From contig PCXQ01000006.1 of assembly GCA_002794035.1 (NCBI GenBank), forward strand, positions 24,533 through 88,532: a stretch of 64,000 nt of DNA, in the 5' to 3' direction. Positions 7,422 through 40,852 of this stretch are shown piece by piece. The notes beneath the pieces were generated by a model that searched no databases, was not told where the DNA came from, and saw nothing but the letters and a program-made list of their open reading frames with translations. The position numbers and the translations under genes are program-made. The DNA comes from Candidatus Yanofskybacteria bacterium CG10_big_fil_rev_8_21_14_0_10_36_16. Lineage in GTDB: Bacteria > Patescibacteriota > Minisyncoccia > 2-02-FULL-40-12 > IGHO2-01-FULL-4-A. Every line of letters starts with the position of its first letter. The first letter of the stretch is position 1.

Positions 7422-7432
7422 TAAACAAAACC

Positions 7433-7567
7433 ATGAATCTTCATAAAGTTTTAAAAAAATTACTTAGCAATATATCTCCCTCTTCAAGGGCGGGGTTTAC
7501 CCCGCTCTTGAAGATGGATGCGCCTTTTTATCTAATATTTATCAGTAATCACCCTGTTAGCTCATGA
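7433..7567 (+). pseudogene. Truncated duplicate of a pilin 5-prime end (44-codon ORF MNLHKVLKKLLSNISPSSRAGFTPLLK...); its TGA stop overlaps the ATG of the next pilin gene (ATGA)
   Basis: Nucleotides 7433-7500 nearly repeat 7564-7632. It encodes the same leader as the downstream pilin, then diverges. An embedded hairpin tcttcaagggcgggg-ttta-ccccgctcttgaaga is present. Confidence 0.45.
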
Positions 7568-8199
7568 ATCTTCTTAAAGTTTTAAAAAAAATACTTAGCA
7601 ATATATCTCCCTCTTCAAGGGCGGGGTTTACATTAATAGAAATAGTAATCGGATTGGCCATAATGTCTATTATAGTTATTTTAATCGGGTCTTTTGGGCT
7701 TGATATTTTAAGCTCTCAAACATCATTTAGTAGAACACTTGAAATACAAAGCGAAATAAATCAAACATTCAAAGAAATTATACCCGAAATTCGCTCAATG
7801 GAAGAATCAGAAAATGGAGCTTACCCAATTATTTCGGCATCATCGGATTCATTTGAATTTTATAGTGATGTGGATAGCAACGGAACAGTAGACAAAGTAA
7901 GATATTTTGTTGATGGAAGTGAGATGAAAAGAGGAACAACAAAACCCTCAGGCAACCCGCCTGTTTATGATCCGTCTGATGAAAAAATTAAAAGATTAAT
8001 TTCTGATTTAACTTTAACATCAGCGGGCATGTTTAAATATTACGATAAAAATTTCACGGGATCCGAAAACTCATTGGCAGTTCCCGTAAGCATACCGGCA
8101 ATAAGATTAATCAGAATTGAAGCAATAGTTGACCCCAAAATACCGGGCTCATCAAATTTTGTTTCATCAATGCAGGCAACGCCCCGTAATTTACGCTAA
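7564..8199 (+). CDS. Minor pilin / pseudopilin (prepilin-type N-terminus)
   Basis: Leader MNLLKVLKKILSNISPSSRAG|FTLIEIVIGLAIMSIIVIL with F at +1 and E at +5; 211 aa. Confidence 0.7.
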   Translation: MNLLKVLKKILSNISPSSRAGFTLIEIVIGLAIMSIIVILIGSFGLDILSSQTSFSRTLEIQSEINQTFKEIIPEIRSMEESENGAYPIISASSDSFEFYSDVDSNGTVDKVRYFVDGSEMKRGTTKPSGNPPVYDPSDEKIKRLISDLTLTSAGMFKYYDKNFTGSENSLAVPVSIPAIRLIRIEAIVDPKIPGSSNFVSSMQATPRNLR

Positions 8200-8223: not shown

Positions 8224-9651
8224 ATGAAATTAAAAATTAAAAATTTGGAAGCAGGCCAACTTTCCCTCTATGTTTTAATTTTCGGCTCTGTAGCTATTGT
8301 TATACTGTCTGGATTTATACTTTGGGCTGACTTAAGCTTTAAAGCAGCAATAAGACAAACAGATCGGCTTTTGGCGCTTGAAATTGCTGAATCAGGCATT
8401 GAATACTACCGCTGGCATTTAGCTCATGTCCCCGATGATTTTCAGGATGGAACAGGAGAACCAGGACCATATGAACATGATTTCTTTGATAAAAACGGGA
8501 ATATTATTGGCAAGTTTACGCTTGAAATAACTCCGCCCTCAGAATCCTCGGGAGTTGTAATTATAAAATCTACAGGAACCGTTGATGTTGATGATAGTAT
8601 TGAAAGAATAGTTGAAGCTCGACTAGCTCTGTCGTCTCTTGCGGGATATGCCATTGTTTCAAATGACAGCATACACATAGGGCAAGGCGCGGAAGTGTTT
8701 GGACCAATACATTCAAATGGAGGTATAAGCTTTAACGGGATTGCACACCATATTGTAACCAGCACCAGAGAAACATATGACGACCCCGCTCACGCAGGAG
8801 TGGAAGAATATGCAGTACACACCCACATAAACCCTGCTGACCCTCTACCCCCAAATCCATTACAAAAAAGACCTAGTGTTTTTAAAGCAGGGCGTGATTT
8901 CCCTGTTCCGGCGGTTGACTTTGATGGCATTGCCAGAGATTTGTCAGATATAAAAACCGGCGCTCAAGCTAGTGGATCATATTTTGGACCCTCAAGTGCT
9001 GAAGGTTATCGTGTAGTCCTGAAAACAAATGATACTTTTGATTTGTATAAAGTTAATTCACAAATTGCACCGCCTGCCGGATGCACCAACGACTTAAGCG
9101 AATCAGACTGGGGGACATGGAGTATCGATTCTGAAACATTTTTAAATAATTATGCACTTCCTTCAAACGGACTTATTTTTTTTGAAGATAACGCATGGAT
9201 TGAAGGTGAAATTGACGGTGAGCGTCTCACCTTGGCTACGGGTATTTTTCCTGAATCACCTGGTAATTACAAGCATATTATAGTAAACAATAATCTAACT
9301 TATTCTAATATTAATGCCCGAGACAAACTGGGCCTGGTAACACAAGGCAATATTATTATAGGAATGGAAAGCACTGGCGACTTGCGTATTGATGCAGCAA
9401 TAGTGGCTAAAAACGGGCGGGTAGGCAGGTTTTATTACAATCCAAGCTGTTCTCCGTACCACAACAGACAATCCTTAACAATTTATGGAATGATAGCAAC
9501 TAACGAAAAATATGGTTTTGCCTATACAGACGGTACAGGATATCAGCAACGATCCATTACATATGACCCAAGATTACTGTCTGATCCGCCTCCGGGGTTT
9601 CCTTCTGATGCCGGATTTTATGAAATTATAAGTTGGAAAGAATTAAAATAA
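8224..9651 (+). CDS. Pilus-associated protein with a PilX-N-like N-terminus (475 aa)
   Basis: N-terminal hydrophobic helix followed by ...DRLLALEIAESGIEYYRW, resembling the PilX N-terminal motif. Located inside the pilus operon. Confidence 0.55.
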   Translation: MKLKIKNLEAGQLSLYVLIFGSVAIVILSGFILWADLSFKAAIRQTDRLLALEIAESGIEYYRWHLAHVPDDFQDGTGEPGPYEHDFFDKNGNIIGKFTLEITPPSESSGVVIIKSTGTVDVDDSIERIVEARLALSSLAGYAIVSNDSIHIGQGAEVFGPIHSNGGISFNGIAHHIVTSTRETYDDPAHAGVEEYAVHTHINPADPLPPNPLQKRPSVFKAGRDFPVPAVDFDGIARDLSDIKTGAQASGSYFGPSSAEGYRVVLKTNDTFDLYKVNSQIAPPAGCTNDLSESDWGTWSIDSETFLNNYALPSNGLIFFEDNAWIEGEIDGERLTLATGIFPESPGNYKHIIVNNNLTYSNINARDKLGLVTQGNIIIGMESTGDLRIDAAIVAKNGRVGRFYYNPSCSPYHNRQSLTIYGMIATNEKYGFAYTDGTGYQQRSITYDPRLLSDPPPGFPSDAGFYEIISWKELK

Positions 9652-9803: not shown

Positions 9804-10274
9804 ATGAGTAAATTATTTAAGACGAAGAAATCACAGGCAGGGTTCACTCTTATTGAATTATTGGTTGTAATAGGTATTATTGCCATTTTGGCAGCGGTAG
9901 TTATTATCGCCATAAACCCAGCCCGTCAGTTCGCACAAGCCAGAAATACCCAGAGGTGGTCAAATGTTAACGCCATCTTAAATGCTATCGGCCAAAACAT
10001 GGCTGATAACCGTGGTGTATTTAACTGTGGTGTTGCATTGCCAGCATCAGCATCGGTTATGTCTAACACAGGATACAATATATACACCTGTATAGTTCCT
10101 ACTTATATATCAACCTTACCAGTGGATCCTTCAGTTGGAGTTAACAATTCTCCAACAGACTACAATACTGGCTACACTGTAGCAAGAGATGCTTCAACAG
10201 GTAGAATTACTGTTAGTGCTCCTGAAGGATTAAACGAAACCGCAGTTCCAGAAAACATTGGCGTAACTAGGTAG
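9804..10274 (+). CDS. pilA: Type IV major pilin (PilA-like)
   Basis: MSKLFKTKKSQAG|FTLIELLVVIGIIAILAAVVIIAI is the classic type IVa prepilin N-terminus. 156 aa. A strong terminator follows directly. Confidence 0.85.
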   Translation: MSKLFKTKKSQAGFTLIELLVVIGIIAILAAVVIIAINPARQFAQARNTQRWSNVNAILNAIGQNMADNRGVFNCGVALPASASVMSNTGYNIYTCIVPTYISTLPVDPSVGVNNSPTDYNTGYTVARDASTGRITVSAPEGLNETAVPENIGVTR

Positions 10275-10430: not shown

Positions 10431-10466
10431 TTTGATTAGAAATTAGAAATTAGAAATTAGAAATTT
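10431..10466. repeat. Tandem heptamer repeat (TTAGAAA) x4 in a promoter region
   Basis: gattagaaattagaaattagaaattagaaattt. Similar repeats occur at 22560-22590, and (AAAATCC)n at 18039-18072. Confidence 0.7.
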
Positions 10467-10710
10467 AAACATATCAAAAATAAATATAGCAATATTAATT
10501 TCAACAGTACTTCTGGGTATAGCTATATTTCCATATACTGCTAAAGCCCAAGATGTAAAAACATACGAATTTAATCCCGATAAATCTTGGAGATTTATAT
10601 ACCCAAGCGCAGAAACAGTATCTCTCAAATTCCAACCATCAAACGATGCCGTAAACGGTTTTGATCTTTGGATAAACAATGGAGGAAGCCAAGGCCAGGC
10701 AACTTTTGTT

Positions 10711-24396: not shown

Positions 24397-24465
24397 CGTA
24401 GCTCAACTGGTCAGAGCGCTGCCCTGTCACGGCAGAGGTTGCGGGTTCAAGTCCCGTCGCTCCCG
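24392..24465 (+). tRNA. tRNA-Asp (GUC)
   Basis: Acceptor gggggcg/cgctccc, anticodon arm ctgcc-cuGUCac-ggcag, T-arm gcggg-ttcaagt-cccgt. No CCA encoded. Confidence 0.8.
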
Positions 24466-24654
24466 CTTCAATAAATTAAAACGGCATAAATGCTGTTTTA
24501 ATTTGGTGCAATGTTTGAGAGTAAGGGGACTTGAACAGTCCCGCAAAGCGGGACAAGGTTCAGCTCAAATTTTTAACGCCCCGCTGTGTTTCGTAAACTC
24601 AACACAAAGCGGGACTAAATTTGAGGATTAAAGCCAAGCAGTTGGCTTTAATCG

Positions 24655-24708
24655 CCGTCGCTCCCGCTTCAATAAATTAAAACGGCATAAATGCTATTTT
24701 AATTTGGT
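24655..24708. repeat. 54-bp direct repeat of the tRNA-Asp 3-prime end plus downstream flank (second copy; first copy at 24454-24507)
   Basis: ccgtcgctcccgcttcaataaattaaaacggcataaatgct(g/a)ttttaatttggt appears twice, 53/54 identical, enclosing a 147-bp hairpin-rich segment. Confidence 0.7.
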
Positions 24709-26498: not shown

Positions 26499-26669
26499 GC
26501 TTATTTTTGGGGGATAATTTAAGTTGATTATAATTGTCAAAAATGATAGTATAAAATAGTTAAGGGACCGCCCAATAACTCACATAATGGGTGGTCTATT
26601 TAGTAAACCATCAATTCCTCCGCCTTATAGTTCCACTAAATTAGGACCAGCGGATGAACCTTCAACAAG

Positions 26670-28766
26670 ATGCCCGAAGAAACAACAAAAACAAAAAAGG
26701 AATCTAACTATGGTGCCAAGGATATATATGTTCTAGAAGGTCTTGATCCTGTTAGAAAAAGACCAGGAATGTATATTGGTTCAACAGGCATAGATGGTCT
26801 TCACCACCTTATTTGGGAGGTAGTAGACAACTCTTTAGATGAAGCCATGGGTGGCTATGCCACAGAAATAGAAGTAAGCCTACTTCCTGAAGGCAGAGTT
26901 TCAGTTAAAGATGACGGACGAGGTATTCCTGTTGAAACGCACAAACAAACTGGCAAATCAGCCCTTGAGACAGTTATGACAACCCTTCATGCCGGAGGTA
27001 AGTTCGGTGGAGAATCATACAAAGTAGCAGCTGGATTACACGGCGTAGGTGTTTCTGTAGTAAACGCTCTTTCAACATACTTAAAAGCAGAAGTTTGCCG
27101 TGACGGAGCAATATATGAACAAGAATATGTAAGAGGCAAGGCAAAGAGAGCCTTAAAAAAAGTAGGTAAATGTAAAGGCACAGGAACAACTGTCACATTT
27201 GAACCTGATCCAGAAATATTCAAAGACCGAAAATTTGATTGGAATAGAATTTTGTCCCATCTGCGTCAACAAGCATACTTAACTAAGGGAGTTAAAATCA
27301 CAATAAATGACAAAAGAAACCCGGTAGAGATTGTGGGGGCAAAGGAAAATGACGGTCACGTACTCTATCCAACTCATACATTTTATTTTGAAGGAGGAAT
27401 TGTTTCTTATGTTCAATATTTAAATCGTCATGAAGACGTCAGACATTCTAATATTTTTTATGTTAATAAAGAACAAGACAACATACTAACAGAGGTAGCA
27501 TTTCAATACACCAACGACATTCAGGGCCATGAATTAAGCTTTGCTAACAATGTTCACACAATAGAGGGAGGCATGCATGTAACCGGTTTTAGAACAGCCA
27601 TAACAAGAACTCTTAACGACTATGCAAGAAAAAATAATTTCCTTAAAGAAAAAGATGATAATCTAACTGGTGAGGATATCAGAGAAGGATTAACAGTTAT
27701 AATCTCCGTTAAATTACAAGAACCTCAGTTTGAAGGCCAGACCAAAGCAAAACTAGGAACAACAGAAGCAAGAACTGTTGTTGAGTCAGTAGTAAGCTCG
27801 GAATTAGCTGATTGGCTAGATCGTCATCCAAACGATGCAAAAGAAATTCTAGGCAAAGTAATTCTTGCAGCAAAAGCCAGAGTTGCGGCAAAGGCAGCAA
27901 GAGATACCGTCATTAGGAAAGGAGCACTTGAGGGTTTTACATTGCCTGGGAAATTAGCTGATTGTTCTTCTAAAAAAGCAGAGGAGTCAGAACTGTTTAT
28001 TGTTGAGGGTGAATCAGCGGGTGGTTCATCAAAGCAAGGACGAGATCGCAGAACTCAAGCCATCTTACCTTTGAAAGGAAAGATTTTAAACGTTGAAAAA
28101 GCGCGCATAGACCGCATGCTTTCATCTCAGGAAATAAGATCTTTGGTCATAGCATTGGGTACAGCTATTGCAGATGAATTCAACATTGATAAACTAAGAT
28201 ACCACAAAATAGTGATAATGACTGACGCTGATGTTGACGGTGCTCACATAAGAACACTTTTACTTACACTATTTTTTAGATATTTCAAAGCGCTAATAGA
28301 GGGCGGCTACGTTTATATAGCACAGCCCCCACTTTACAGAATCCAAAAAGGCAAAGAAATCACATATGCCTACACAGAAAAACAAAAGATTCAAATATTA
28401 GCAAGATTAGCAGATGCACAAGAAAATAAAAAAGAAAAAACCGAAAAAAAGGCCAAAGGAAAGAGATCACAAGACGAGAAATGGGAAGTAACAGAACTTG
28501 GTTCTGATAACAATGATGAATCATTAGAAGATGAAACAAAAATTTCGGGAATCTCAATACAAAGATACAAAGGTTTGGGTGAAATGAACCCGAGCCAGCT
28601 TTGGGACACAACAATGAACCCTGAAAGCCGGATGTTATTAAGGGTTGATATTGAGGATGCGGAAGAAGCAGATAAAATATTTGATATTCTCATGGGTTCT
28701 GAAGTTTTGCCAAGGAAAAGATTTATAGAAACCCACGCAAAAGACGTAAAGAATTTAGATATATAA
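26670..28766 (+). CDS. gyrB: DNA gyrase subunit B
   Basis: GLDPVRKRPGMYIGSTG...HHLIWEVVDNSLDEAMGG; Toprim PLKGKILNVEKAR; 698 aa. Confidence 0.9.
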   Translation: MPEETTKTKKESNYGAKDIYVLEGLDPVRKRPGMYIGSTGIDGLHHLIWEVVDNSLDEAMGGYATEIEVSLLPEGRVSVKDDGRGIPVETHKQTGKSALETVMTTLHAGGKFGGESYKVAAGLHGVGVSVVNALSTYLKAEVCRDGAIYEQEYVRGKAKRALKKVGKCKGTGTTVTFEPDPEIFKDRKFDWNRILSHLRQQAYLTKGVKITINDKRNPVEIVGAKENDGHVLYPTHTFYFEGGIVSYVQYLNRHEDVRHSNIFYVNKEQDNILTEVAFQYTNDIQGHELSFANNVHTIEGGMHVTGFRTAITRTLNDYARKNNFLKEKDDNLTGEDIREGLTVIISVKLQEPQFEGQTKAKLGTTEARTVVESVVSSELADWLDRHPNDAKEILGKVILAAKARVAAKAARDTVIRKGALEGFTLPGKLADCSSKKAEESELFIVEGESAGGSSKQGRDRRTQAILPLKGKILNVEKARIDRMLSSQEIRSLVIALGTAIADEFNIDKLRYHKIVIMTDADVDGAHIRTLLLTLFFRYFKALIEGGYVYIAQPPLYRIQKGKEITYAYTEKQKIQILARLADAQENKKEKTEKKAKGKRSQDEKWEVTELGSDNNDESLEDETKISGISIQRYKGLGEMNPSQLWDTTMNPESRMLLRVDIEDAEEADKIFDILMGSEVLPRKRFIETHAKDVKNLDI

Positions 28767-28861
28767 AATCATCGTTCGAGGTTGACTTTAAAGGGCGTTT
28801 GATATATACTTGTATTATAAGTGAATGACGCCCCGGAAGGGGTTTTAAAATAGAAACATAT

Positions 28862-28952
28862 AACATCAATTCCAGTTAAGAACTCCCGATGCAAAGCATC
28901 GAGGTTCCTCAATAATCTAATCGAGGGACTCGAAAGATTTATCGGGATTTCG
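28862..28952 (+). promoter_or_regulatory. Conserved structured ~95-nt leader element, copy 1 (immediately upstream of secE)
   Basis: acatcaattccagttaagaactcccgatgc-aaa-gcatcgaggttcctcaataatctaatcgagggactcgaaagatttatcgggatttcg. Hairpins cgatgc/gcatcg, gagg/cctc, tcgag/ctcga, atcg/cgat. Copies at 29727-29800 and 34039-34134. Confidence 0.55.
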
Positions 28953-28957
28953 ATGAA

Positions 28958-29137
28958 ATGGACAAAGTCACTTCTTTTCTCAAAGATGTAAAATTAGAAA
29001 TGTCGAGGGTCAGCTGGCCCACAAAAGAACAAACCGTTAAATATACGGCCGTAGTTACGGTGATAAGTTTAATCGTGGCAGGATTTTTGGGAGGACTAGA
29101 TGTAATATTTCAATATATATTAAATAAAATAATTTAG
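28958..29137 (+). CDS. secE: Preprotein translocase subunit SecE (59 aa; below the ORF-track length cutoff)
   Basis: MDKVTSFLKDVKLEMSRVSWPTKEQTVKYTAVVTVISLIVAGFLGGLDVIFQYILNKII matches the SecE pattern (R..W P...E......VV). Sits directly before nusG. Confidence 0.75.
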   Translation: MDKVTSFLKDVKLEMSRVSWPTKEQTVKYTAVVTVISLIVAGFLGGLDVIFQYILNKII

Positions 29138-29175
29138 TTTAGGTTCAAATTGTTTTAACTTGAACCTTTGATGAG

Positions 29176-29721
29176 ATGCCTAAACAACAAGAAACAAAAG
29201 AAAAACAATGGTTTGCTATCCATACCTATTCAGGATACGAAGATAACGTTATGCAAAACCTCAAACAAAGAGTTGAATCTTTGGGTTATGAAGACAAAAT
29301 ATTTAATGTTGTAGTACCAAAAGAAAAAAAGGTTAAAATGAAAGGCGGCAAAAGATCGACTTTTGAAGAAAAAATATACCCGGGCTATGTTTTGGTTGAA
29401 ATGATAGTAACTGATGATTCATGGTATATAGTAAGAAACACACCAAATGTTACAGGATTTATAGGTGCAGGGACAACCCCAACACCTCTTGCCAAAGAAG
29501 AGATAGACAATCTCATGAAAAGAATGGGTGTTGAAGAACCTAAATATAAGATTGACGTAATGGTAGGTGATATGGTAAAAATCACCGACGGACCTTTCAA
29601 AGATTTTGATGGCCGTGTATCTGAAGTAGACATTGATAGAGGCAGAATAAAAGTTTTAGTAGCAATATTCGGAAGAGAAACACCCGTAGAATTGGATTTC
29701 CTCCAAGTTAAAAAACTATAA
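29176..29721 (+). CDS. nusG: Transcription antiterminator NusG
   Basis: WFAIHTYSGYEDNV...; KOW: VGDMVKITDGPFKDFDGRVSEVD. Confidence 0.9.
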   Translation: MPKQQETKEKQWFAIHTYSGYEDNVMQNLKQRVESLGYEDKIFNVVVPKEKKVKMKGGKRSTFEEKIYPGYVLVEMIVTDDSWYIVRNTPNVTGFIGAGTTPTPLAKEEIDNLMKRMGVEEPKYKIDVMVGDMVKITDGPFKDFDGRVSEVDIDRGRIKVLVAIFGRETPVELDFLQVKKL

Positions 29722-29726
29722 AAAAA

Positions 29727-29800
29727 ACTCCCGATGCAAAGCATCGAGGTTCCTCAATAATCTAATCGAGGGACTCGAAAGATTATCGGGTATTCAACGT
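29727..29800 (+). promoter_or_regulatory. Conserved structured leader element, copy 2 (in the rplK 5-prime UTR), followed by a long UUCG-capped hairpin
   Basis: Near identical to copy 1 (ctcccgatgcaaagcatcgaggttcctcaataatctaatcgagggactcgaaagattatcggg). Downstream: tcggtgat-tcaa-tcggc-at-ctctgc-TTCG-gcagag-gccg-atcaccga (29826-29873). Confidence 0.55.
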
Positions 29801-29964
29801 TTAACATCGATTCCAGCTAATATCTCGGTGATTCAATCGGCATCTCTGCTTCGCAGAGGCCGATCACCGACCATAGAATTGTTTTAAAGAAGCAAACCTC
29901 TCGGGAGGAAAGAAAGAACTTCTTTAAAACAATTCTACTGATATTAACTTGAACCTTCGATGAT

Positions 29965-30387
29965 ATGGCTAAAAAGATTAAAACAATTATAAAACTACAA
30001 GTAGAGGGGGGGAAGGCTACACCAGCTCCACCTGTGGGAACAGCATTGGGTCCTCATGGATTAAATATCCAGGAGTTTGTATTAAAATTCAACGAAGCAA
30101 CCAAAGATAAAGTAGGCGAAGTAACCCCTGTTGAATTAACTGTTTATGAAGATAGGACTTTTGATTTTAAATTAAAGACCCCGCCTGCTGCATTTTTACT
30201 GCGAAAAGCTGCTGGTATTGAAAAAGGTTCAGGTGAACCAAACAGAAAGAAAGTGGGCAAAGTTACAAAAGACCAAGTACGTCTAATAGCAGAACAAAAA
30301 ATGGCAGATTTAAATGCAAACGATATTGAAAATGCATCAAGGATAATAGAAGGGACTGCTCGCTCAATGGGAATTGAAATAAAATAA
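29965..30387 (+). CDS. rplK: 50S ribosomal protein L11
   Basis: [38 protein letters not shown]... Confidence 0.9.
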
Positions 30388-30412
30388 AATAAAAAAAAAT
30401 CTATTAAAATAA

Positions 30413-30446
30413 AAACCATCACGTTAATGCGTGATGGTTTTTATTT
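30413..30446 (+). terminator. Rho-independent terminator after rplK (no rplA follows)
   Basis: aaaaaccatcacg-ttaat-gcgtgatggttttt. Confidence 0.7.
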
Positions 30447-30581
30447 TAGTTTGTGTTGATAACAGCATGCTAAAACTAAGTTATAATATAAGTATATTTG
30501 GAGTTAACATTAAACAACTTAACGATATGATTATGTAAACAAAACCGCATGGTACGGTGTTTTTGGAATTTTTAATTTATT

Positions 30582-31151
30582 ATGCCAAATCAAGAACCGG
30601 GCAATATACAACTACTGCCCGCGACAAGAAAAGAAGTCAAAATAAAAAGGCGCAGAAGCTTTAAGGATTTTATAATACCAGCAGGTGCCATAGGAATTGT
30701 TTTGGCAATTTATGGCGGTTTATTTTATTACAAAAATACATTAATGAATCAACTGACAAACATTGACCAAGAAATTTTAGTAGTAGAAAGAAGCCGAGAC
30801 AAGGAACTTGAAAAGGAAATTTTGTCCCTTGAAAAACAACTAAGCATAGTAGGCCCCATGCTTAACAATCATATATTTTGGTCCAAGGGTTTAGAAAAAA
30901 TTGAATCTCTAATAAAACCCCAGATAGAAATTGAGACTCTTTCCATTGATACAGTAAAATCAGAAGTTTCTGTAAGTATTAACGCATTGAACTATTTGAT
31001 AATAGCAAAACAAATTGCTGCACTGTTTTCAGATGATGTTATTACCGCGGTTTCTTTAGGAGAAATGAGATTAGACCAAAACGGCAGAATAACCTCCTCC
31101 ATGAGAATAGGATTTGACGGCGACAAACTATTAAAACAAAGAGTGGAATAG
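30582..31151 (+). CDS. PilN-like pilus assembly protein
   Basis: N-terminal NIQLLPATRKE matches the PilN 'INLLP' motif; single TM; coiled-coil periplasmic region; 189 aa. Confidence 0.6.
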   Translation: MPNQEPGNIQLLPATRKEVKIKRRRSFKDFIIPAGAIGIVLAIYGGLFYYKNTLMNQLTNIDQEILVVERSRDKELEKEILSLEKQLSIVGPMLNNHIFWSKGLEKIESLIKPQIEIETLSIDTVKSEVSVSINALNYLIIAKQIAALFSDDVITAVSLGEMRLDQNGRITSSMRIGFDGDKLLKQRVE

Positions 31152-31194
31152 ATAATTTGCACTAAAAGTTTTTAATAAAAAATAAATTAATTTA

Positions 31195-31728
31195 ATGATA
31201 AGAAATATTTTACCTTCATTTTTAATTGGTGCTGCCTTCTTCGGGATTTTTGTGTTGGTACTACCTCAATATGATTCCATTAAAACTCTTTGGGGTGAAA
31301 TAGCATCAAGACAAGAAATATTAGACGAAAGACGAGAGGCCTTACAATCTGTAACAGCACTAGGAAGACAAATAAGGAATAGCGAAGAACTTGAAAGATT
31401 AGAGTTACTAGTCCCCACAAGCGCTAAAACAGAGGAAATAATTTCCAGCTTAGACAATATTGCTGCCCAATCAGGATTAACAATGAATAGTCTTACTGTT
31501 GCAGGCACTACAAACAACACAAAAAGAGGCGGCAGTTCCGGATATAAAAACGTACTAATAGACATTTCCCTCAATGGAAGCTACAACTCATTACTTAATT
31601 TCCTATCATTAATTGAACAAAACTTAAGGGTATACGACATAAATGAAATCTCTATGACAACTGATCGCGGTAGCTTCCTAATAAACCTAACCATTAACGC
31701 TTACCAATTAGAGGTACCCGAGGGCTAA
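31195..31728 (+). CDS. PilO-like pilus assembly protein
   Basis: Single N-terminal TM, coiled coil (EILDERREALQSV), C-terminal alpha/beta region; ordered directly after PilN. Confidence 0.5.
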   Translation: MIRNILPSFLIGAAFFGIFVLVLPQYDSIKTLWGEIASRQEILDERREALQSVTALGRQIRNSEELERLELLVPTSAKTEEIISSLDNIAAQSGLTMNSLTVAGTTNNTKRGGSSGYKNVLIDISLNGSYNSLLNFLSLIEQNLRVYDINEISMTTDRGSFLINLTINAYQLEVPEG

Positions 31729-31754
31729 TAAATAATTAATATTAAAATAATCTA

Positions 31755-32120
31755 ATGGCAAATTCTATAAGACAAAAAAGCTCTACTAAAACCATGCTAA
31801 TTATGATGGTATTTTTGGGTATAGCAGCGGGTTATATTTTTTATTTTCAAACGCTAAAAGACCAAGCGCTAAGCATTGCACCATTGCCAATTAGAACAGG
31901 CGATGATCTTACTAAGCTAAAAGATAAAAAACTTAATTTGACTGTTTTTAATAATAATATTTATAAAACCCTTCGTATTTTTGGAGAGGTTCCTGTAGAC
32001 CCAGGCATAGTTGGCAAAGAAAACCTTTTTGATCTAATAAGCGTACCAGAGGAAGCACTCCAGCCTTCTCCACAGCCTGAAGAATCTGCGCCACCAGAAA
32101 CAACCCCACAAGCTCAATAA
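31755..32120 (+). CDS. Small TM protein with a Pro-rich C-terminus (possible PilP-like component)
   Basis: Position in the operon; single TM; PSPQPEESAPPETTP tail. Confidence 0.35.
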   Translation: MANSIRQKSSTKTMLIMMVFLGIAAGYIFYFQTLKDQALSIAPLPIRTGDDLTKLKDKKLNLTVFNNNIYKTLRIFGEVPVDPGIVGKENLFDLISVPEEALQPSPQPEESAPPETTPQAQ

Positions 32121-32234
32121 CATTTAATAAAAATAAAAACTAATAAATCAGGCTATAGTACTAAAACCTTGAACAACCAAAACACGGGATATCTCAGACT
32201 TGGCACTTTTAGCTTATGGTTTATCTAAAAGTAA

Positions 32235-34025
32235 TTGCCCTATAAACAACCCACGTATCTAATAAGTGAGATAACAAAAAGGGGGCTCATAGCGCCCGAG
32301 GTTATTAGCATAGCAGAAACAGAAGCTGTTGAAGAAAACAAAGATTTAGGACAAATACTTGTTGAAAAAGAAGCTATTGATGATGACAATCTAGCAAAGT
32401 TAAAATCTGAAATATATCAACTCCCAATCGTTAATCTTCCTTCTGTTGAAGTCAAAAAAGAAGTAGCTCAATTAATTTCTGCTGATGTTATGGAATTTTA
32501 CCAGATAATCCCTTTTGCTATTGAAGGCGATATTTTAAAAGTTGCGATAGTAAACCCTGAAGACATAGATGCTCTTGAGGCATTAAAATTCATAGCAGCG
32601 GAAAAAGAGCTAACTACCGAGAAATACATAATAACATACAAGGATTTTGAAAACTTAAAAAGAAATTTAAGACCACTATCACGAGAAGTAGGCAAAGCCC
32701 TAGAATCATTCTCCCAAGAAACATCAAAAAAGGAGCTGGAGTTGGAAAAAGGAGGAGGTCTTGATGAAATCACCGTGGATGCTCCGGTAAGCAGGATAGT
32801 AGCAGCTATTGTAAAACATGCCGTTGATACAAGAGCATCAGACATACACGTAGAACCTTTTGAGGAAAGCGTACGGTTAAGATTTAGAATTGATGGTGTT
32901 ATGCAAATAATGCTATCTTTGCCAAAAAATCTTTTAGCACCGGTTGTGACTAGAATTAAAATATTATCTGAAATGAAAATAGATGAGACTCGCATACCTC
33001 AAGACGGCCGTTTCTCCACAGCTCTAGGAGATAGAAAGATAGACTTTCGTGTGTCAACAATACCAACAAGGAACGGAGAAAAAACCGTTATGAGAATTTT
33101 AGACCCGCTAGTGGGAGATATAAACCTAACGGAGCTTGGACTTGAAGGCCGCTCCCTAAAATTAGTAAGAGAAAACATAAACAAACCATTTGGTTCTATA
33201 TTAATAACAGGTCCTACAGGATCAGGAAAATCAACGACTCTTGCAGCAATATTAAGAGAAATAAACGATGAGGGCATTAACATCATAACCCTTGAAAACC
33301 CTATTGAATATTATGTAGAGGGCGTAAACCAATCTCAAATTCATGAAGAAGTAGGTTATACCTTCGCATCAGGTCTTAGACACATATTAAGGCAAGACCC
33401 AGATATAATAATGGTAGGTGAGATACGTGATGGTGAGACGGCTAATCTGGCAATTCAATCTGCCCTTACCGGTCACTTAGTATTGTCAACACTCCACACA
33501 AATGACACAATAGGCATAATACCCAGATTGGTAAACATGGGTGTTGAGCCATACCTTGTGGCCCCAACCTTAAACATAGGGCTTGCTCAGCGTCTTTTAA
33601 GAAAGTTATGCGATCAATGCAAAGCAGAAACAAAAGCTACTTCTTCTGAAGCCGAAATTATTAAACGAGCGCTTAAAAATATGCCAGAAGATGAGAAGAA
33701 AGATTTACAACAAGACAATTTCAAAATCTATAAAGCAGGCGAAGGATGCAAAGAATGCGGAGGCAAGGCATACAAAGGACGAATCGCCATATTTGAAACT
33801 CTTGAAATGACTGACCAGCTTGAAAAAATTATACTTGGAAAAATTTCAGAGCAAGCTTTTCGTGAAGAAGCTAAAAGACAAGGAATGATATCGGTGTTCC
33901 AAGATGGCATAAGAAAAGTCCTTCATGGCGTATCTTCCCTAGAAGAATTATTCACAGTAGCTCAAGAAGGACAAGAGAGCAGTGATAAAAATGAAAAAGA
34001 AATAACTAAAAATAATATAAATTAG
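32235..34025 (+). CDS. pilB: Type IV pilus assembly ATPase PilB (canonical; T2SS-E N-terminal domain present)
   Basis: N1 domain (ISEITKRGLIAPEV...LKVAIVNPEDIDALEALKF); Walker A GPTGSGKSTT; VLSTLHTNDT; tetracysteine CDQC...CKECGG. Confidence 0.85.
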   Translation: MPYKQPTYLISEITKRGLIAPEVISIAETEAVEENKDLGQILVEKEAIDDDNLAKLKSEIYQLPIVNLPSVEVKKEVAQLISADVMEFYQIIPFAIEGDILKVAIVNPEDIDALEALKFIAAEKELTTEKYIITYKDFENLKRNLRPLSREVGKALESFSQETSKKELELEKGGGLDEITVDAPVSRIVAAIVKHAVDTRASDIHVEPFEESVRLRFRIDGVMQIMLSLPKNLLAPVVTRIKILSEMKIDETRIPQDGRFSTALGDRKIDFRVSTIPTRNGEKTVMRILDPLVGDINLTELGLEGRSLKLVRENINKPFGSILITGPTGSGKSTTLAAILREINDEGINIITLENPIEYYVEGVNQSQIHEEVGYTFASGLRHILRQDPDIIMVGEIRDGETANLAIQSALTGHLVLSTLHTNDTIGIIPRLVNMGVEPYLVAPTLNIGLAQRLLRKLCDQCKAETKATSSEAEIIKRALKNMPEDEKKDLQQDNFKIYKAGEGCKECGGKAYKGRIAIFETLEMTDQLEKIILGKISEQAFREEAKRQGMISVFQDGIRKVLHGVSSLEELFTVAQEGQESSDKNEKEITKNNIN

Positions 34026-34038
34026 AGGTTTGCAATTA

Positions 34039-34134
34039 AACATCAATTCCAGTTAAAAACTCCCGATGCCTTGCATCGAGAATCCTCGATAATTAAATCA
34101 AGGAACTCGAAAAATTTATTGGGATTCCAACACA
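34039..34134 (+). promoter_or_regulatory. Conserved structured leader element, copy 3 (ends at the GTG start of pilT)
   Basis: acatcaattccagttaaaaactcccgatgc-ctt-gcatcgagaatcctcgataattaaatcaaggaactcgaaaaatttattgggattcc. Loop and stem substitutions keep the pairing (cgatgc/gcatcg; atcgag/ctcgat). Confidence 0.55.
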
Positions 34135-35205
34135 GTGGACTACCAAAAACAAATAAATGACTTGTTAATGGAAACAGCCCAAAAAAATGGGTCTGATTTG
34201 CATTTATCGCCTGGATATTATCCAACAGTTAGAATTGATGGCCGACTTATACCACTAACTGATTACAAGGTTTTAGATTCCCAAACACTGGAAAGCATGG
34301 CTTTTAGCATAATAGATGATTTTAAGAAAGACAGATTTAAAACAGAAAAAGAGCTTGATTTTACATACGAACTAAAAGGGCGAATAAGATTTAGATCTAA
34401 CTTTTATTTAACCAGAGGAAAAATAGCAGCTGCATTCAGGCTTATTCCTACTGAGATTAAAACTTTGGAGGAGTTAAGACTTCCGCCTATTCTAAAGATT
34501 TTTAGTAAGCTATCTCAAGGTTTTGTTCTTATTGTCGGACCAAACGGTCACGGGAAAACGACAACCTTGGCGGCACTAATAGATTCAATCAACAAAGAAA
34601 GGGCTGAAAAAATAGTTACCATAGAAGACCCGATTGAATATGTGTACACTCCCGACAAATGTATAATAGACCAAAGAGAGCTAGGTCAGGACACGCTTTC
34701 ATTCGGTAAAGCACTTAGATCAACTTTTAGAGAAAACGTAAACGTAATTATGGTAGGTGAGATGAGGGATTACGAAACAATGAGCGCAGCTGTAACAGCA
34801 GCTGAGACAGGGCACTTGGTATTTGGCACTCTTCACACCAATAATGCAGCTCAAACAATTCAAAGAATTGTTGATACTTTTCCGCCCTCACAACAAGCAC
34901 AGGTAATAGCACAGTTAGCAAATACTATCTCAGGAATTGTTTCTCAAAGATTAATACCTAGGATCAAAGGAGGTCAGATCCCGGCAGTAGAAGTTTTAAT
35001 AGCAAATTCTGCAGTAAGAACTTTGATAAGAGAAAGAAAATTCCAACAGTTAAACCTTGTAATAGATACGAGTTTTGAGAGCGGAATGATATCTTTGAAC
35101 AGATATCTTGCGAATCTTGTAAAGAATAAGGAAGTATCAAAAGAACAGGCAGAATTCTTCTCATTAAACCCAGAAGAATTAAAAGAATTAATGAAAAACT
35201 ATTAA
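34135..35205 (+). CDS. pilT: Type IV pilus retraction ATPase PilT
   Basis: GTG start. LHLSPGYYPTVRIDG; Walker A variant GPNGHGKTTT; GTLHTNNAAQTIQRIV; 356 aa. Confidence 0.85.
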   Translation: MDYQKQINDLLMETAQKNGSDLHLSPGYYPTVRIDGRLIPLTDYKVLDSQTLESMAFSIIDDFKKDRFKTEKELDFTYELKGRIRFRSNFYLTRGKIAAAFRLIPTEIKTLEELRLPPILKIFSKLSQGFVLIVGPNGHGKTTTLAALIDSINKERAEKIVTIEDPIEYVYTPDKCIIDQRELGQDTLSFGKALRSTFRENVNVIMVGEMRDYETMSAAVTAAETGHLVFGTLHTNNAAQTIQRIVDTFPPSQQAQVIAQLANTISGIVSQRLIPRIKGGQIPAVEVLIANSAVRTLIRERKFQQLNLVIDTSFESGMISLNRYLANLVKNKEVSKEQAEFFSLNPEELKELMKNY

Positions 35206-35233: not shown

Positions 35234-36448
35234 ATGGCAGAGTTTATTTACCAAGCAAAAAATCCAGCTGGTGAAACAGTTGAAGGGAAAATAGACGCAC
35301 CGTCAGAAAATGACGCCGTTAATTTTTTGCATGAAAGAAATTTTGTAATATTAAGCCTTGAAGAAGCACAAAAGAATATATTCAGCATAGACATTTCATC
35401 TCTATTTGAGCAGGCAAATACCAAAGACATCGTTATATTCACGAGGCAGCTAGCTACTCTACTAGGAGCTGATGTACCCTTAGTTGAAGGCATAAAAACA
35501 ATAGCAAGGCAAACAGAAAAAGAATCATTTAAAAAAATAATAAATGCCGTAGCTGCATCTGTCGAAGGAGGCGCAGCATTATCGGCTGCCTTATCTGAAT
35601 TTGGTGATATTTTTTCTGATTTTTACATCAGCTTGGTAAAAGCAGGTGAAGTTTCAGGCAAACTTAATGAAACCCTTAATTATCTAGCGGATTACCTTGA
35701 AAGAAAGGAAGGTATCAGCTCAACCATTCGAGGAGCAATGGCATATCCTGTTTTTGTTCTTATTGCCCTTGTTATTGTAATGATAATAATGATGATATGG
35801 GTTTTACCGCAACTATTGGCCATTATCAGTGATGCAGGGGTTAAAGAAATTCCCTTTACTACCAGGGTTATAATATTCACAACAGAATTTTTTAATAAAT
35901 ACATATTACTAATCGCCTTAGGAGCAATAATGGCTGGAATGGGCCTTTTTAGTTATTTAAAAACACCAGGGGGCAAGGTTTGGTTTGATGGATTTAAAAT
36001 TTCAATTCCAAGACTCGGAAGCATAATAAAAAGCTTTTATATCTCACGTTTCGCAGAAACCTTATCAACACTAATTAAAGCAGGAGTACCAATATTAAGA
36101 TCGTTACAGGTAACAGGAGATGTTGTCGGAAATTCGATTTACAAGGAATCTATAATGGAGGCTCATGAAAGCATAAAAACAGGAGGAACAATGTCTGAGG
36201 TATTCCAAAAATACCCCAATGAATTTCCGACATTAGTTACATCAATGTTATCCATTGGAGAAAAAACTGGAAGAACTGATTTTATGCTTGAAAACATATT
36301 TAATTTTTACAAAAAAGAAACCGAAAACAGCATAAACAGTTTATCTCAACTTCTTGAACCTGTAATGATTATGATTCTAGGTATAGGTGTAGCATTTTTG
36401 GTTTCGGGTATACTTTTGCCTATATACAGCTTGGTTGGATCAAATTAA
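35234..36448 (+). CDS. pilC: Type IV pilus platform protein PilC (full-length, two GspF repeats)
   Basis: 404 aa; GspF repeats (GEVSGKLNETLNYLADYL; GEKTGRTDFMLENIFNFY); three TM segments. Confidence 0.85.
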   Translation: MAEFIYQAKNPAGETVEGKIDAPSENDAVNFLHERNFVILSLEEAQKNIFSIDISSLFEQANTKDIVIFTRQLATLLGADVPLVEGIKTIARQTEKESFKKIINAVAASVEGGAALSAALSEFGDIFSDFYISLVKAGEVSGKLNETLNYLADYLERKEGISSTIRGAMAYPVFVLIALVIVMIIMMIWVLPQLLAIISDAGVKEIPFTTRVIIFTTEFFNKYILLIALGAIMAGMGLFSYLKTPGGKVWFDGFKISIPRLGSIIKSFYISRFAETLSTLIKAGVPILRSLQVTGDVVGNSIYKESIMEAHESIKTGGTMSEVFQKYPNEFPTLVTSMLSIGEKTGRTDFMLENIFNFYKKETENSINSLSQLLEPVMIMILGIGVAFLVSGILLPIYSLVGSN

Positions 36449-39477: not shown

Positions 39478-39591
39478 TGCTTTATCTTCATAAAAAAAGG
39501 CTTAATTCATACAATCTGAAACCACTGGAAGATAGTGGTGGTTTTACCCCACTCTTGAACAGCTTGTTTCTACTATTCGTTTAATTAAAAT

Positions 39592-40143
39592 ATGAAATTT
39601 AAATTAATAAAGACATTGTTTAACAATGATTTTCCTTATTCAAGGGCGGGGTTTACTCTGGTTGAAGTTGCAATATCAACCGTAATTTTGGGTATTTTTA
39701 TGTCTGCACTTCTGTTTATTTTATCTTTAAGCATATCCAGTGCCACTACTGTAAAAAATAATTTTGTTGCAGCATTTTTGGCCCAAGAAGGTGTAGAACT
39801 AATGAACAATCTGAGACACGAAGACTGGATTCAAGGAAGAGAATTCGGGTCTTTTGGAAGTATTCTAGGTGCCGTAAGTGACGGTGAATACCGTATTCAA
39901 TGGGACTCACTTGAACTCATGTCTCTAAACGGAAATCCACAATTACTAATTGATGATTCGACTGGATTGTATGGATACTCTGATGGAGGAATAGTTGGTG
40001 GAAATTCTGGTTTTTATAGAAAAGTAATAGTTGAAACTGTTGTTCCAGATATAGAAAAAAGGGTTACAGTAAGAATAGAATGGTCTGATGATGGAAATGC
40101 AAAACAAATAAACACGGAGTGGCATGCATTTAATTGGAAGTAA
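39592..40143 (+). CDS. Minor pilin (SRAG|FT leader class)
   Basis: MKFKLIKTLFNNDFPYSRAG|FTLVEVAISTVILGIFMSALLFIL. Confidence 0.65.
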   Translation: MKFKLIKTLFNNDFPYSRAGFTLVEVAISTVILGIFMSALLFILSLSISSATTVKNNFVAAFLAQEGVELMNNLRHEDWIQGREFGSFGSILGAVSDGEYRIQWDSLELMSLNGNPQLLIDDSTGLYGYSDGGIVGGNSGFYRKVIVETVVPDIEKRVTVRIEWSDDGNAKQINTEWHAFNWK

Positions 40144-40243: not shown

Positions 40244-40364
40244 GGTTTACCCCACTCTTGAACAGCTCGTTTCTACTATTCGTTTAATTAAAATATGAAA
40301 TTTAAATTAATAAAGACATTGTTTAACAATGATTTTCCTTATTCAAGGGCGGGGTTTACCGTAT
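40244..40364 (+). repeat. ~120-bp near-identical duplicated block (upstream region plus first 23 codons) shared by the two tandem minor pilin genes; the other copy is 39541-39661
   Basis: From tttaccccactcttgaacagct through caagggcggggtttac the two copies differ at a single position; downstream mature-protein coding diverges completely. Confidence 0.75.
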
Positions 40365-40852
40365 TTGAAATGTTAACTGCGGGCACAATATTTACCATTG
40401 CTCTTGTTGTTGTTACGGGGTCGTTTGTGCAATCTCTAAGAACAGAAAGGCGTGCCGATAATATAAAGATAGTACAAGAAGATGCTCTGTTTGTTATGGA
40501 AGTTATAAGCAGAGAAATCAGGGTAGCTGAAATCCAAAATAGAACGGGTGATCCTGACTGCCCAGACGATCAGCCAGCATTAGTGCTTTGCATAATTCAC
40601 CCTGTAAATGGCGACATCGTATATTCAATTTCTAATAATCAAATACACAGGAACGTTAATGGTAAAGACACCATATTAAGTTCAGACAATATTGAGTTTA
40701 CAAAACTAGAATTTTACCATTCAGGACTTGAAGCTGGTGATGGCTTGCAGCCCCGAATAACAATTTTAGCAACAGTAAAAAGCGTGGGTCCAAATGAAAC
40801 TGTCGAAATAAAAGTACAAACAACAGTATCTCAAAGATTATTACAAAGCTAA
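40295..40852 (+). CDS. Minor pilin (SRAG|FT leader class; tandem paralog of 39592)
   Basis: MKFKLIKTLFNNDFPYSRAG|FTVFEMLTAGTIFTIALVVV. Confidence 0.65.
   Translation: MKFKLIKTLFNNDFPYSRAGFTVFEMLTAGTIFTIALVVVTGSFVQSLRTERRADNIKIVQEDALFVMEVISREIRVAEIQNRTGDPDCPDDQPALVLCIIHPVNGDIVYSISNNQIHRNVNGKDTILSSDNIEFTKLEFYHSGLEAGDGLQPRITILATVKSVGPNETVEIKVQTTVSQRLLQS

Follow-up and report, generated by a model that had tools for sequence, protein, structure and literature searches.

The element that precedes secE, rplK and pilT in three copies is a composite, in which a young duplicated hairpin is joined to borrowed pieces of an older leader helix. The hairpin core is restricted to one species as far as our data reach, and what is conserved across genomes is the closing helix of this older leader type, formed by two strands termed the A-box and the D-box, and not the three-copy core. 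Tentatively, we favour a reading in which the core is a species-restricted duplicated leader hairpin that acts in cis, if at all, on translation or mRNA stability. The core is neither a ligand sensor nor a ribosomal-protein operator, and the observation is real yet ordinary in kind, namely a lineage-specific intergenic hairpin repeat. The window denotes throughout the whole stretch of 64,000 nucleotides that was analysed, which derives from an uncultured Candidatus Yanofskybacteria bacterium (Patescibacteria); NCBI proteins bearing this name match its NusG and PilT at 100% identity.

Three copies of a composite element between gyrB and pilT

The element lies within a series of plus-strand genes in which the identities of secE (28958-29137), nusG (29176-29721), rplK (29965-30387), pilB (32235-34025) and pilT (34135-35205, GTG start) are backed by Pfam. 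The gene 5′ of secE is gyrB (26670-28766), pilus assembly genes occupy the interval between rplK and pilB, and pilC (35234-36448) follows pilT. A repeat finder identified one plus-strand repeat family (D2) at 28862-28963, 29707-29808 and 34039-34140, the latter two being 70% and 81% identical to copy 1; the copies themselves span 28862-28952, ~29722-29800 and 34039-34134. The 21-nt hairpin pattern CTCCCGATGCNNNGCATCGAG gave three plus-strand matches in the window against 0.00 expected, and an nhmmer profile of the copies (E 1e-25 to 1e-31) found only these three places in the window. The existence of three copies upstream of secE, rplK and pilT, as originally predicted, is therefore real and far above chance by repeat finder, pattern and profile. 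No further copy was found in ~10 kb of extra flank; the three copies in the ~74 kb seen all fall within 5.3 kb and all are in sense orientation.

Copy 1 comprises an A-box (ACATCAATTCCAGTTAA, 28863-28879), a core hairpin (28883-28949) of 21 pairs with a closing stem (28884-28891 with 28940-28947) and predicted inner stems (28899-28910 with 28923-28933), and a tail TTCGATGAAATG (28949-28960) that includes the secE ATG at 28958. Copy 3 has the same order, with an A-box at 34040-34056 and a core at 34060-34127 (closing stem 34061-34068 with 34117-34124). The A-box of copy 1 matches that of copy 3 at 17/17 positions and that of the rplK leader at 15/17. Copy 2 consists of the core (29722-29800, closing stem 29730-29736 with 29784-29790) and is positioned between the nusG stop codon (29719-29721) and a separate rplK leader. 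The arrangement proposed as common to the three copies thus holds for the core, but copy 2 lacks the 5′ ACATCAATTCCAGTTAA block. A variant of that block with two mismatches, ACATCGATTCCAGCTAA, does occur 3′ of the copy 2 core at 29804-29820, where it is part of the different, conserved rplK leader and not of copy 2. The 3′ end of nusG (CCAAGTTAAAAAAC) resembles the A-box linker, a likeness that may possibly represent microhomology for the insertion of copy 2.

It had also been claimed that the element ends exactly at the start codon in copies 1 and 3. The N-terminus of PilT read from GTG 34135 is conserved in an 86%-identical homologue (P0122); for secE, ATG 28953 does not share the reading frame of the gene, which starts at ATG 28958. 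By direct reading of the sequence, the end of the closing stem lies exactly 10 nt upstream of the start codon in copies 1 and 3; copy 2 lies 165 nt from its start codon and the 10-nt spacing is therefore not general. In the extended minimum free energy (MFE) fold of copy 1 the stem continues across UGGA of the start region. Strong AAGGAGG sites had been said to precede most other genes, but only ~5 of ~55 ORFs of at least 150 amino acids in the window carry any Shine-Dalgarno-like motif, counting the first start of the ORF or a nearby alternative in-frame start, and the remaining starts show plain AT-rich upstream sequence. Absence of a Shine-Dalgarno site is the norm in the window and is therefore no mark of the secE or pilT element; secE, nusG and rplK lack such a site in relatives as well.

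Upstream of copy 1 we identified a promoter-like sequence, TTGACT-17-TATACT, followed by a hairpin and TTTTAAAA (28782-28848, plus strand). The promoter-like site itself (28782-28810) is conserved and would place copy 1 in the secE 5′ UTR; no plus-strand terminator was called at any of the copies. The same promoter-like arrangement, with a short G+C hairpin and TTTTAAAA within ~20 nt, is also present before secE in five related loci (L012, L018, L068, L085 and L087), and promoter-like site plus hairpin precede secE-nusG in many Paceibacteria. From its sequence this secE-nusG arrangement has the look of an attenuator in a leader, at which NusG might exert feedback.

Other features of the window were noted in passing. 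We considered a general bridging of stop and next start codons by hairpins and rejected it, as the intergenic regions of the window taken end to end are no more compact than shuffled sequence. The 3′ end of a tRNA-Asp together with the hairpin that follows it (24443-24507) is duplicated 201 nt downstream (24644-24708, 91% identity), a layout reminiscent of the termini of a small element that has integrated or been excised. Two pairs of near-identical repeats (96-97%), 39543-39666 with 40246-40369 and 7432-7500 with 7563-7631, extend from upstream of paralogous ORFs into their 5′ ends, and at least the pair within 7432-7631 involves a pilin-like (N_methyl) gene.

Fold, divergence and distribution of the core

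The core is a self-folding sense-strand hairpin of about 72-75 nt, and the same plus-strand fold is predicted in all three copies with z-scores of -2.6 to -3.2. An 8-bp closing stem, UCCCGAUG/UAUYGGGA, is followed by an internal loop and then by an irregular inner hairpin in which UCGAG pairs with CUCGA and UCCUC with GAGGG; the MFE of the copy 1 core (71 nt) is -24.7 kcal/mol. An alternative fold in which the A-box pairs with GGGAUU is 2.1-6.2 kcal/mol less stable than the main fold. We set aside a switch to this conformation, which is possible yet 2-6 kcal/mol less stable.

The cores of copies 1 and 2 differ by one mismatch and two single-base gaps in 73 nt (~99% identical). Their duplication or conversion is therefore recent, and only copy 3, which differs from copy 1 at 14 of 71 core positions, is informative on variation. 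The divergence of copy 3 had originally been read as compensatory change and as a signature of selection on RNA structure. The first part of this reading does not survive: in an alignment of the three copies, where 95% of cells are paired, three are broken and two changes to a wobble pair affect one side only, not one pair has changed on both sides, because there are just three copies and two of them are near-identical. The fold of copy 3 is nevertheless kept. Alignment and fold read together place 10 of its 14 substitutions in unpaired columns while two more keep pairing via G-U. Its folding energy is -20.8 kcal/mol as against -12.1 ± 3.4 for a null in which copy 1 was randomly mutated 2000 times with the substitution spectrum of copy 3 (p-values of 0.0115 for the plus and 0.05 for the minus strand, from one diverged copy run on two strands). 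Some selection for sense-strand RNA folding is thus plausible. The internal loops vary by copy (AAA vs CUU). Copies 1 and 3 show no difference in the 17 positions of the A-box, as against 14 differences in the 71 positions of the core, and this constancy suggests a role tied to sequence, which a module acting by structure alone would leave unexplained. The core also contains an upstream ORF of eight codons (28889-28915, MQSIEVPQ*, in copy 1; 34066-34092, MPCIENPR*, in copy 3), of which start, frame and stop are kept in copy 3 despite six substitutions; conservation does not extend to the peptide.

The minus strand folds more stably than the plus strand (about -33 vs -27 kcal/mol) and could in principle form a hairpin, CCUCGAUGC-UUU-GCAUCGGGAG, followed by a U run, that would serve as an antisense intrinsic terminator or a small antisense RNA. 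We regard such a role as very unlikely. Copy 2, with its tail AGTTTTTTTT, is called terminator-like on that strand and is the only copy to pass the terminator scan, the tail of copy 1 being UUCUUAAC; there is no minus-strand gene or promoter nearby; fold retention is the weaker on this strand (p = 0.05), and the closing stem of copy 3 would carry A-C mismatches. Integron attC sites, kink-turns, boxA, a promoter inside the A-box and a minus-strand small RNA were likewise dropped on inspection by eye, as the consensus, order or promoter that each would need is missing.

An nhmmer search of 80 species-representative nusG loci (66-80% NusG identity) found the core in none, and in 1.34 Mb of window and relatives a covariance model trained on the copies, a check proposed with the original prediction, matched just those three. 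Four loci with identical NusG (L001-L004) are from the same strain, being 99.9-100% identical, and therefore add no variation. A metagenome scan with the hairpin pattern yielded 97 stretches, all of which match just the 21-nt hairpin and are chance matches, and viral contigs scanned with hairpin, A-box and D-box gave chance matches or none. In three groundwater contigs the hairpin match extends to GAGGATCCTC, which is part of a different CTCGCAATGACG repeat, and the CTCGCAATGACG part of that repeat is absent from the window. This groundwater repeat (L119 853-881, L143 1712-1740, L139 716-745) ends in CCTCGCAATGACGG and carries a hairpin, CTCCCGATGC-TTC-GCATCGAGGATCCTC, that matches the 5′ hairpin of the core at 27 of 30 positions, whether by shared ancestry or by chance. 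A scan of the whole window against Rfam 15 at the gathering threshold returned three tRNAs only, and for the region 28600-34400 at E up to 10 it returned weak chance matches, the best on the element scoring 20.4 bits against a gathering threshold of 49.5. The three-copy element therefore matches no Rfam family. No 23S rRNA lies in the window.

Comparison with orthologous sites in relatives identifies the copies as insertions. The nearest relatives show 82-84% identity in NusG and 81-86% in PilT, and include a sister genome, GCA_030698885.1 (loci L085 and L198), with NusG at 82% and PilT at 86%. In the nusG-rplK spacer of the sister genome, 8 nt after the nusG stop are followed directly by ACATCGATTCCAATTGATATC..., a homologue of window 29804-29964, with no core, and copy 2 is accordingly an insertion between the nusG stop and the rplK leader. 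L087 (NusG 84%) has a secE leader of ~25 nt and a nusG-rplK spacer of 6 nt, and this spacer is 0-40 nt in most relatives. Neither A-box nor core precedes pilT in L198, L199 or L200. The region upstream of pilT is occupied by an unrelated 63-nt palindrome in L198 and by ~60-100 nt of unrelated sequence in L200, and L199 has a called pilB-pilT spacer of 6 nt, or ~50 nt of unrelated sequence if the GTG homologous to that of the window is used. Empty orthologous sites are thus seen in L085, L087, L198, L199 and L200.

As the core is missing both from orthologous sites in relatives and from all collections searched, it is no conserved riboswitch and no conserved ribosomal-protein autoregulatory leader. 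Both had been offered as explanations, and a small riboswitch or an operator of the L11 or L1 type would fit the structured fold and the position of copy 2 upstream of rplK. We give this reading hardly any weight. The element has no Rfam match even at E up to 10, the core is conserved in no relative and has no homologue outside the species, no pair is changed on both sides, the internal loops differ (AAA vs CUU), and the associated genes are incoherent in function. In the sister genome the core is missing upstream of rplK, and the leader that is in fact conserved at rplK has another sequence.

The spacers of the secE-pilT neighbourhood, chiefly the site before secE, collect lineage-specific insertions of which the core is one example. 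The sister genome contains an unrelated repeat with 16-nt terminal inverted repeats (TCTACYAATTACYAAT...ATTRGTAATTRGTAGA), present in at least six copies in 37 kb (L085 6589-6795, 9644-9732 and 9917-9996; L198 4420-, 9078-9224 and 10438-10575), which stand before secE, nusG, pilC and other genes. Five of the six copies seen begin directly after the upstream stop codon, and in four of the six the end is followed after 3-4 nt by the next ATG, set in a GAYGANATG context. In L188 a GIY-YIG endonuclease gene (167-433) is inserted precisely where the secE leader meets the secE ATG, the same site as that of copy 1, and in L189 the site is empty.

These observations bear on a further explanation, that the element is a selfish or neutral small palindromic repeat, MITE- or REP-like, residing in permissive intergenic sites, lacking any function in its own right, with its folding a by-product of palindromic DNA. 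We judge it somewhat unlikely on its own account, and a purely selfish repeat is nearly as likely as the leader hairpin. The empty orthologous sites, the unrelated terminal-inverted-repeat family in the same kinds of spacers of the sister genome, the GIY-YIG insertion at the same secE site, the near-identity of copies 1 and 2 and the finding of a core on either side of an A-box would all be expected of such a repeat. However, reading of the flanks by eye reveals no evident target-site duplication, and there is no transposase among the Pfam labels of the called genes, which cover most of the ~74 kb. With regard to the terminal inverted repeats of a MITE, only the 8-bp closing stem is inverted, and the A-box and the 3′ end do not form inverted repeats. 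Just three copies occur in the ~74 kb covered, all in 5.3 kb and all sense, and the fold is kept preferentially on the plus strand through G-U pairs.

The rplK leader and the A-box/D-box closing helix

Just downstream of copy 2 lies a separate rplK leader (29802-29964, plus strand), ~165 nt in length and predicted to form a three-way junction, so that copy 2 is not itself the leader of rplK as had been supposed. Its closing helix pairs the A-box ACATCGATTCCAGCTAATATC (29804-29820) with the D-box GATATTAACTTGAACCTTCGATG (29942-29961), which ends 2-4 nt before the rplK ATG at 29965. When window 29802-29967 was aligned with L085 10554-10722 using RNAalifold, 8 of the 47 pairs were changed on both sides and 0 were broken, and the leader is conserved at the orthologous site in the sister genome as a ribosomal-protein leader would be. 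The tail of its D-box, TTCGATGATATG (29956-29967), is nearly identical to the copy 1 tail. The rplK leader has no match in Rfam and is absent from a 2020 list of ribosomal-protein leader candidates (PMC7247131). Here a terminator, and not rplA, follows rplK. A perfect 20-bp hairpin at 30404-30449, 3′ of rplK, is terminator-like on both strands, and rplK is therefore effectively monocistronic. Absence of L1 has been reported for the lineage of the window. A structured leader before an rplK gene that rplA does not follow could represent a new mode of L11 control.

The A-box/D-box family was defined from four leaders in three genomes, those of window gyrB, window rplK, L085 rplK and L067 nusG (9934-10003). 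All four share a closing-helix design that combines UUC:GAA with a C/U mismatch and a CCU bulge, and have a distal helix that differs in sequence in each leader and always pairs. The gyrB leader (26609-26669, plus strand) contains no core and consists of the A-box CATCAATTCC, a TCCGC/GCGGA helix and the D-box TGAACCTTCAACAAG up to ATG 26670; no A-box/D-box leader is present in the gyrB leader of L085. Within the window nusG leader (29141-29175, plus strand) a hairpin, AGGTTCAA/TTGAACCT, carries a D-box (family D7) that pairs with a local partner and is followed by TTGATGAG and ATG 29176. The distance from D-box to ATG is equal in window gyrB, nusG and rplK, L085 rplK and L067 nusG. Among ~90 related loci (~1.26 Mb), only L067 and L085 contain members of the family. 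The architecture is an older, rare, covariation-supported type of leader.

The ACATCAATTCCAGTTAA block of copies 1 and 3 is the 5′ strand, or A-box, of this older closing helix. For the A-box feature CAUCRAUUCC, copies 1 and 3 carry the CATCAATTCC of the gyrB leader and match the rplK leader at 9/10 positions. Copy 2 has no A-box of its own and sits outside the rplK helix. The D-box partner UGAACCU is missing from copies 1 and 3, which have GGGAUU in its place. Of the tails, that of copy 1 fits UUCRAYNNN-AUG; that of copy 3 is CCAACACAGTG, which resembles the pilT start context of L199 and is therefore probably ancestral pilT sequence.

A shared A-box raises the question of a shared factor. 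Under such a scheme one trans-acting factor, whether a protein, a small RNA or the ribosome, would bind the A-box as the operator of a regulon comprising secE, rplK, pilT and perhaps gyrB and nusG, which would explain why the A-boxes of copies 1 and 3 are identical despite a 20% difference between their cores. Recurrence of the A-box before gyrB and rplK, a single A-box/D-box helix design in four leaders of three genomes and a D-box at fixed distance from the ATG are consistent with it. We consider it unlikely, however, since conservation does not lie in the three-copy core, the D-box partner UGAACCU is missing from copies 1 and 3, the rplK helix does not include copy 2, the genes downstream have unrelated functions, and the family is rare, being found in 2 of ~90 related loci. 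A broader proposal, which we consider a little less probable again, is that the A-box/D-box helix with interchangeable inner hairpins, the core being one of them, constitutes a novel class of leader that controls the translation of Shine-Dalgarno-free genes in Patescibacteria. One common factor or the ribosome would read the helix, and duplication of a "leader cassette" would recruit gyrB, secE and pilT; this further step we hold to be equally doubtful.

Proposed mode of action and comparison with known systems

In the cis-acting leader-hairpin reading that we favour, the element would be a young module consisting of the ~72-nt core and, in copies 1 and 3, the A-box strand of the older leader helix. 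Local duplication or gene conversion would have carried it to three intergenic sites in a stretch of 5.3 kb. We infer that the core is transcribed, as part of the secE 5′ UTR, the nusG-rplK spacer and the pilB-pilT spacer, and in the transcript it would form an extended hairpin with the 8-bp closing stem. At secE and pilT the stem would end 10 nt before the start codon, and that of copy 1 could be extended across the start codon via GAA:UUC, UUA:UGA and UCCA:UGGA. Any action would probably be a local tuning in cis of Shine-Dalgarno-free translation initiation, or of the stability of the host mRNA.

Non-coding RNA in bacteria of the candidate phyla radiation (CPR) is, as far as we are aware, almost uncharted. 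Against this background the three-copy repeat is an example of a structured 5′ UTR module copied onto new genes within one lineage, and it flags an insertion hot spot immediately 5′ of secE. In practice it has been most useful in pointing to the rplK leader and to the shared closing-helix design, which are the better leads.

A number of known systems invite comparison. In E. coli, rpsA is an example of a gene that has a structured leader and no Shine-Dalgarno site. Similarly, copies 1 and 3 place a hairpin 10 nt before a Shine-Dalgarno-free start codon, and the stem of copy 1 may extend over the start. The 10-nt spacing occurs in only two of the three copies, and the comparison is one of sequence; most Shine-Dalgarno-free genes of the window start after plain AT-rich sequence in which no comparable hairpin occurs. 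Ribosomal-protein autoregulatory leaders include the L10 leader (RF00557) and the E. coli L11-operon leader bound by L1. The element resembles them in being a structured RNA directly upstream of a ribosomal-protein gene, and the ~165-nt rplK leader behaves in this way; the core, in contrast, is not conserved, also precedes secE and pilT, and has no Rfam match.

ERIC (IRU), pneumococcal BOX, Neisseria Correia (NEMIS) and REP sequences are intergenic imperfect palindromes of tens to ~150 nt that are co-transcribed with flanking genes; they are lineage-specific and present or absent at orthologous sites, and BOX elements are built from modules A, B and C. Like these, the window element is an intergenic imperfect palindrome with lineage-specific presence or absence and predicted co-transcription, and its composition of A-box, core and tail parallels the modularity of BOX. 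It differs in that three copies were seen in ~74 kb, clustered and in one orientation, and in that its terminal inverted repeats are limited to the 8-bp closing stem and neither a target duplication nor a transposase was found. A further difference from these repeat families is that its A-box module is common to a conserved, covariation-supported leader.
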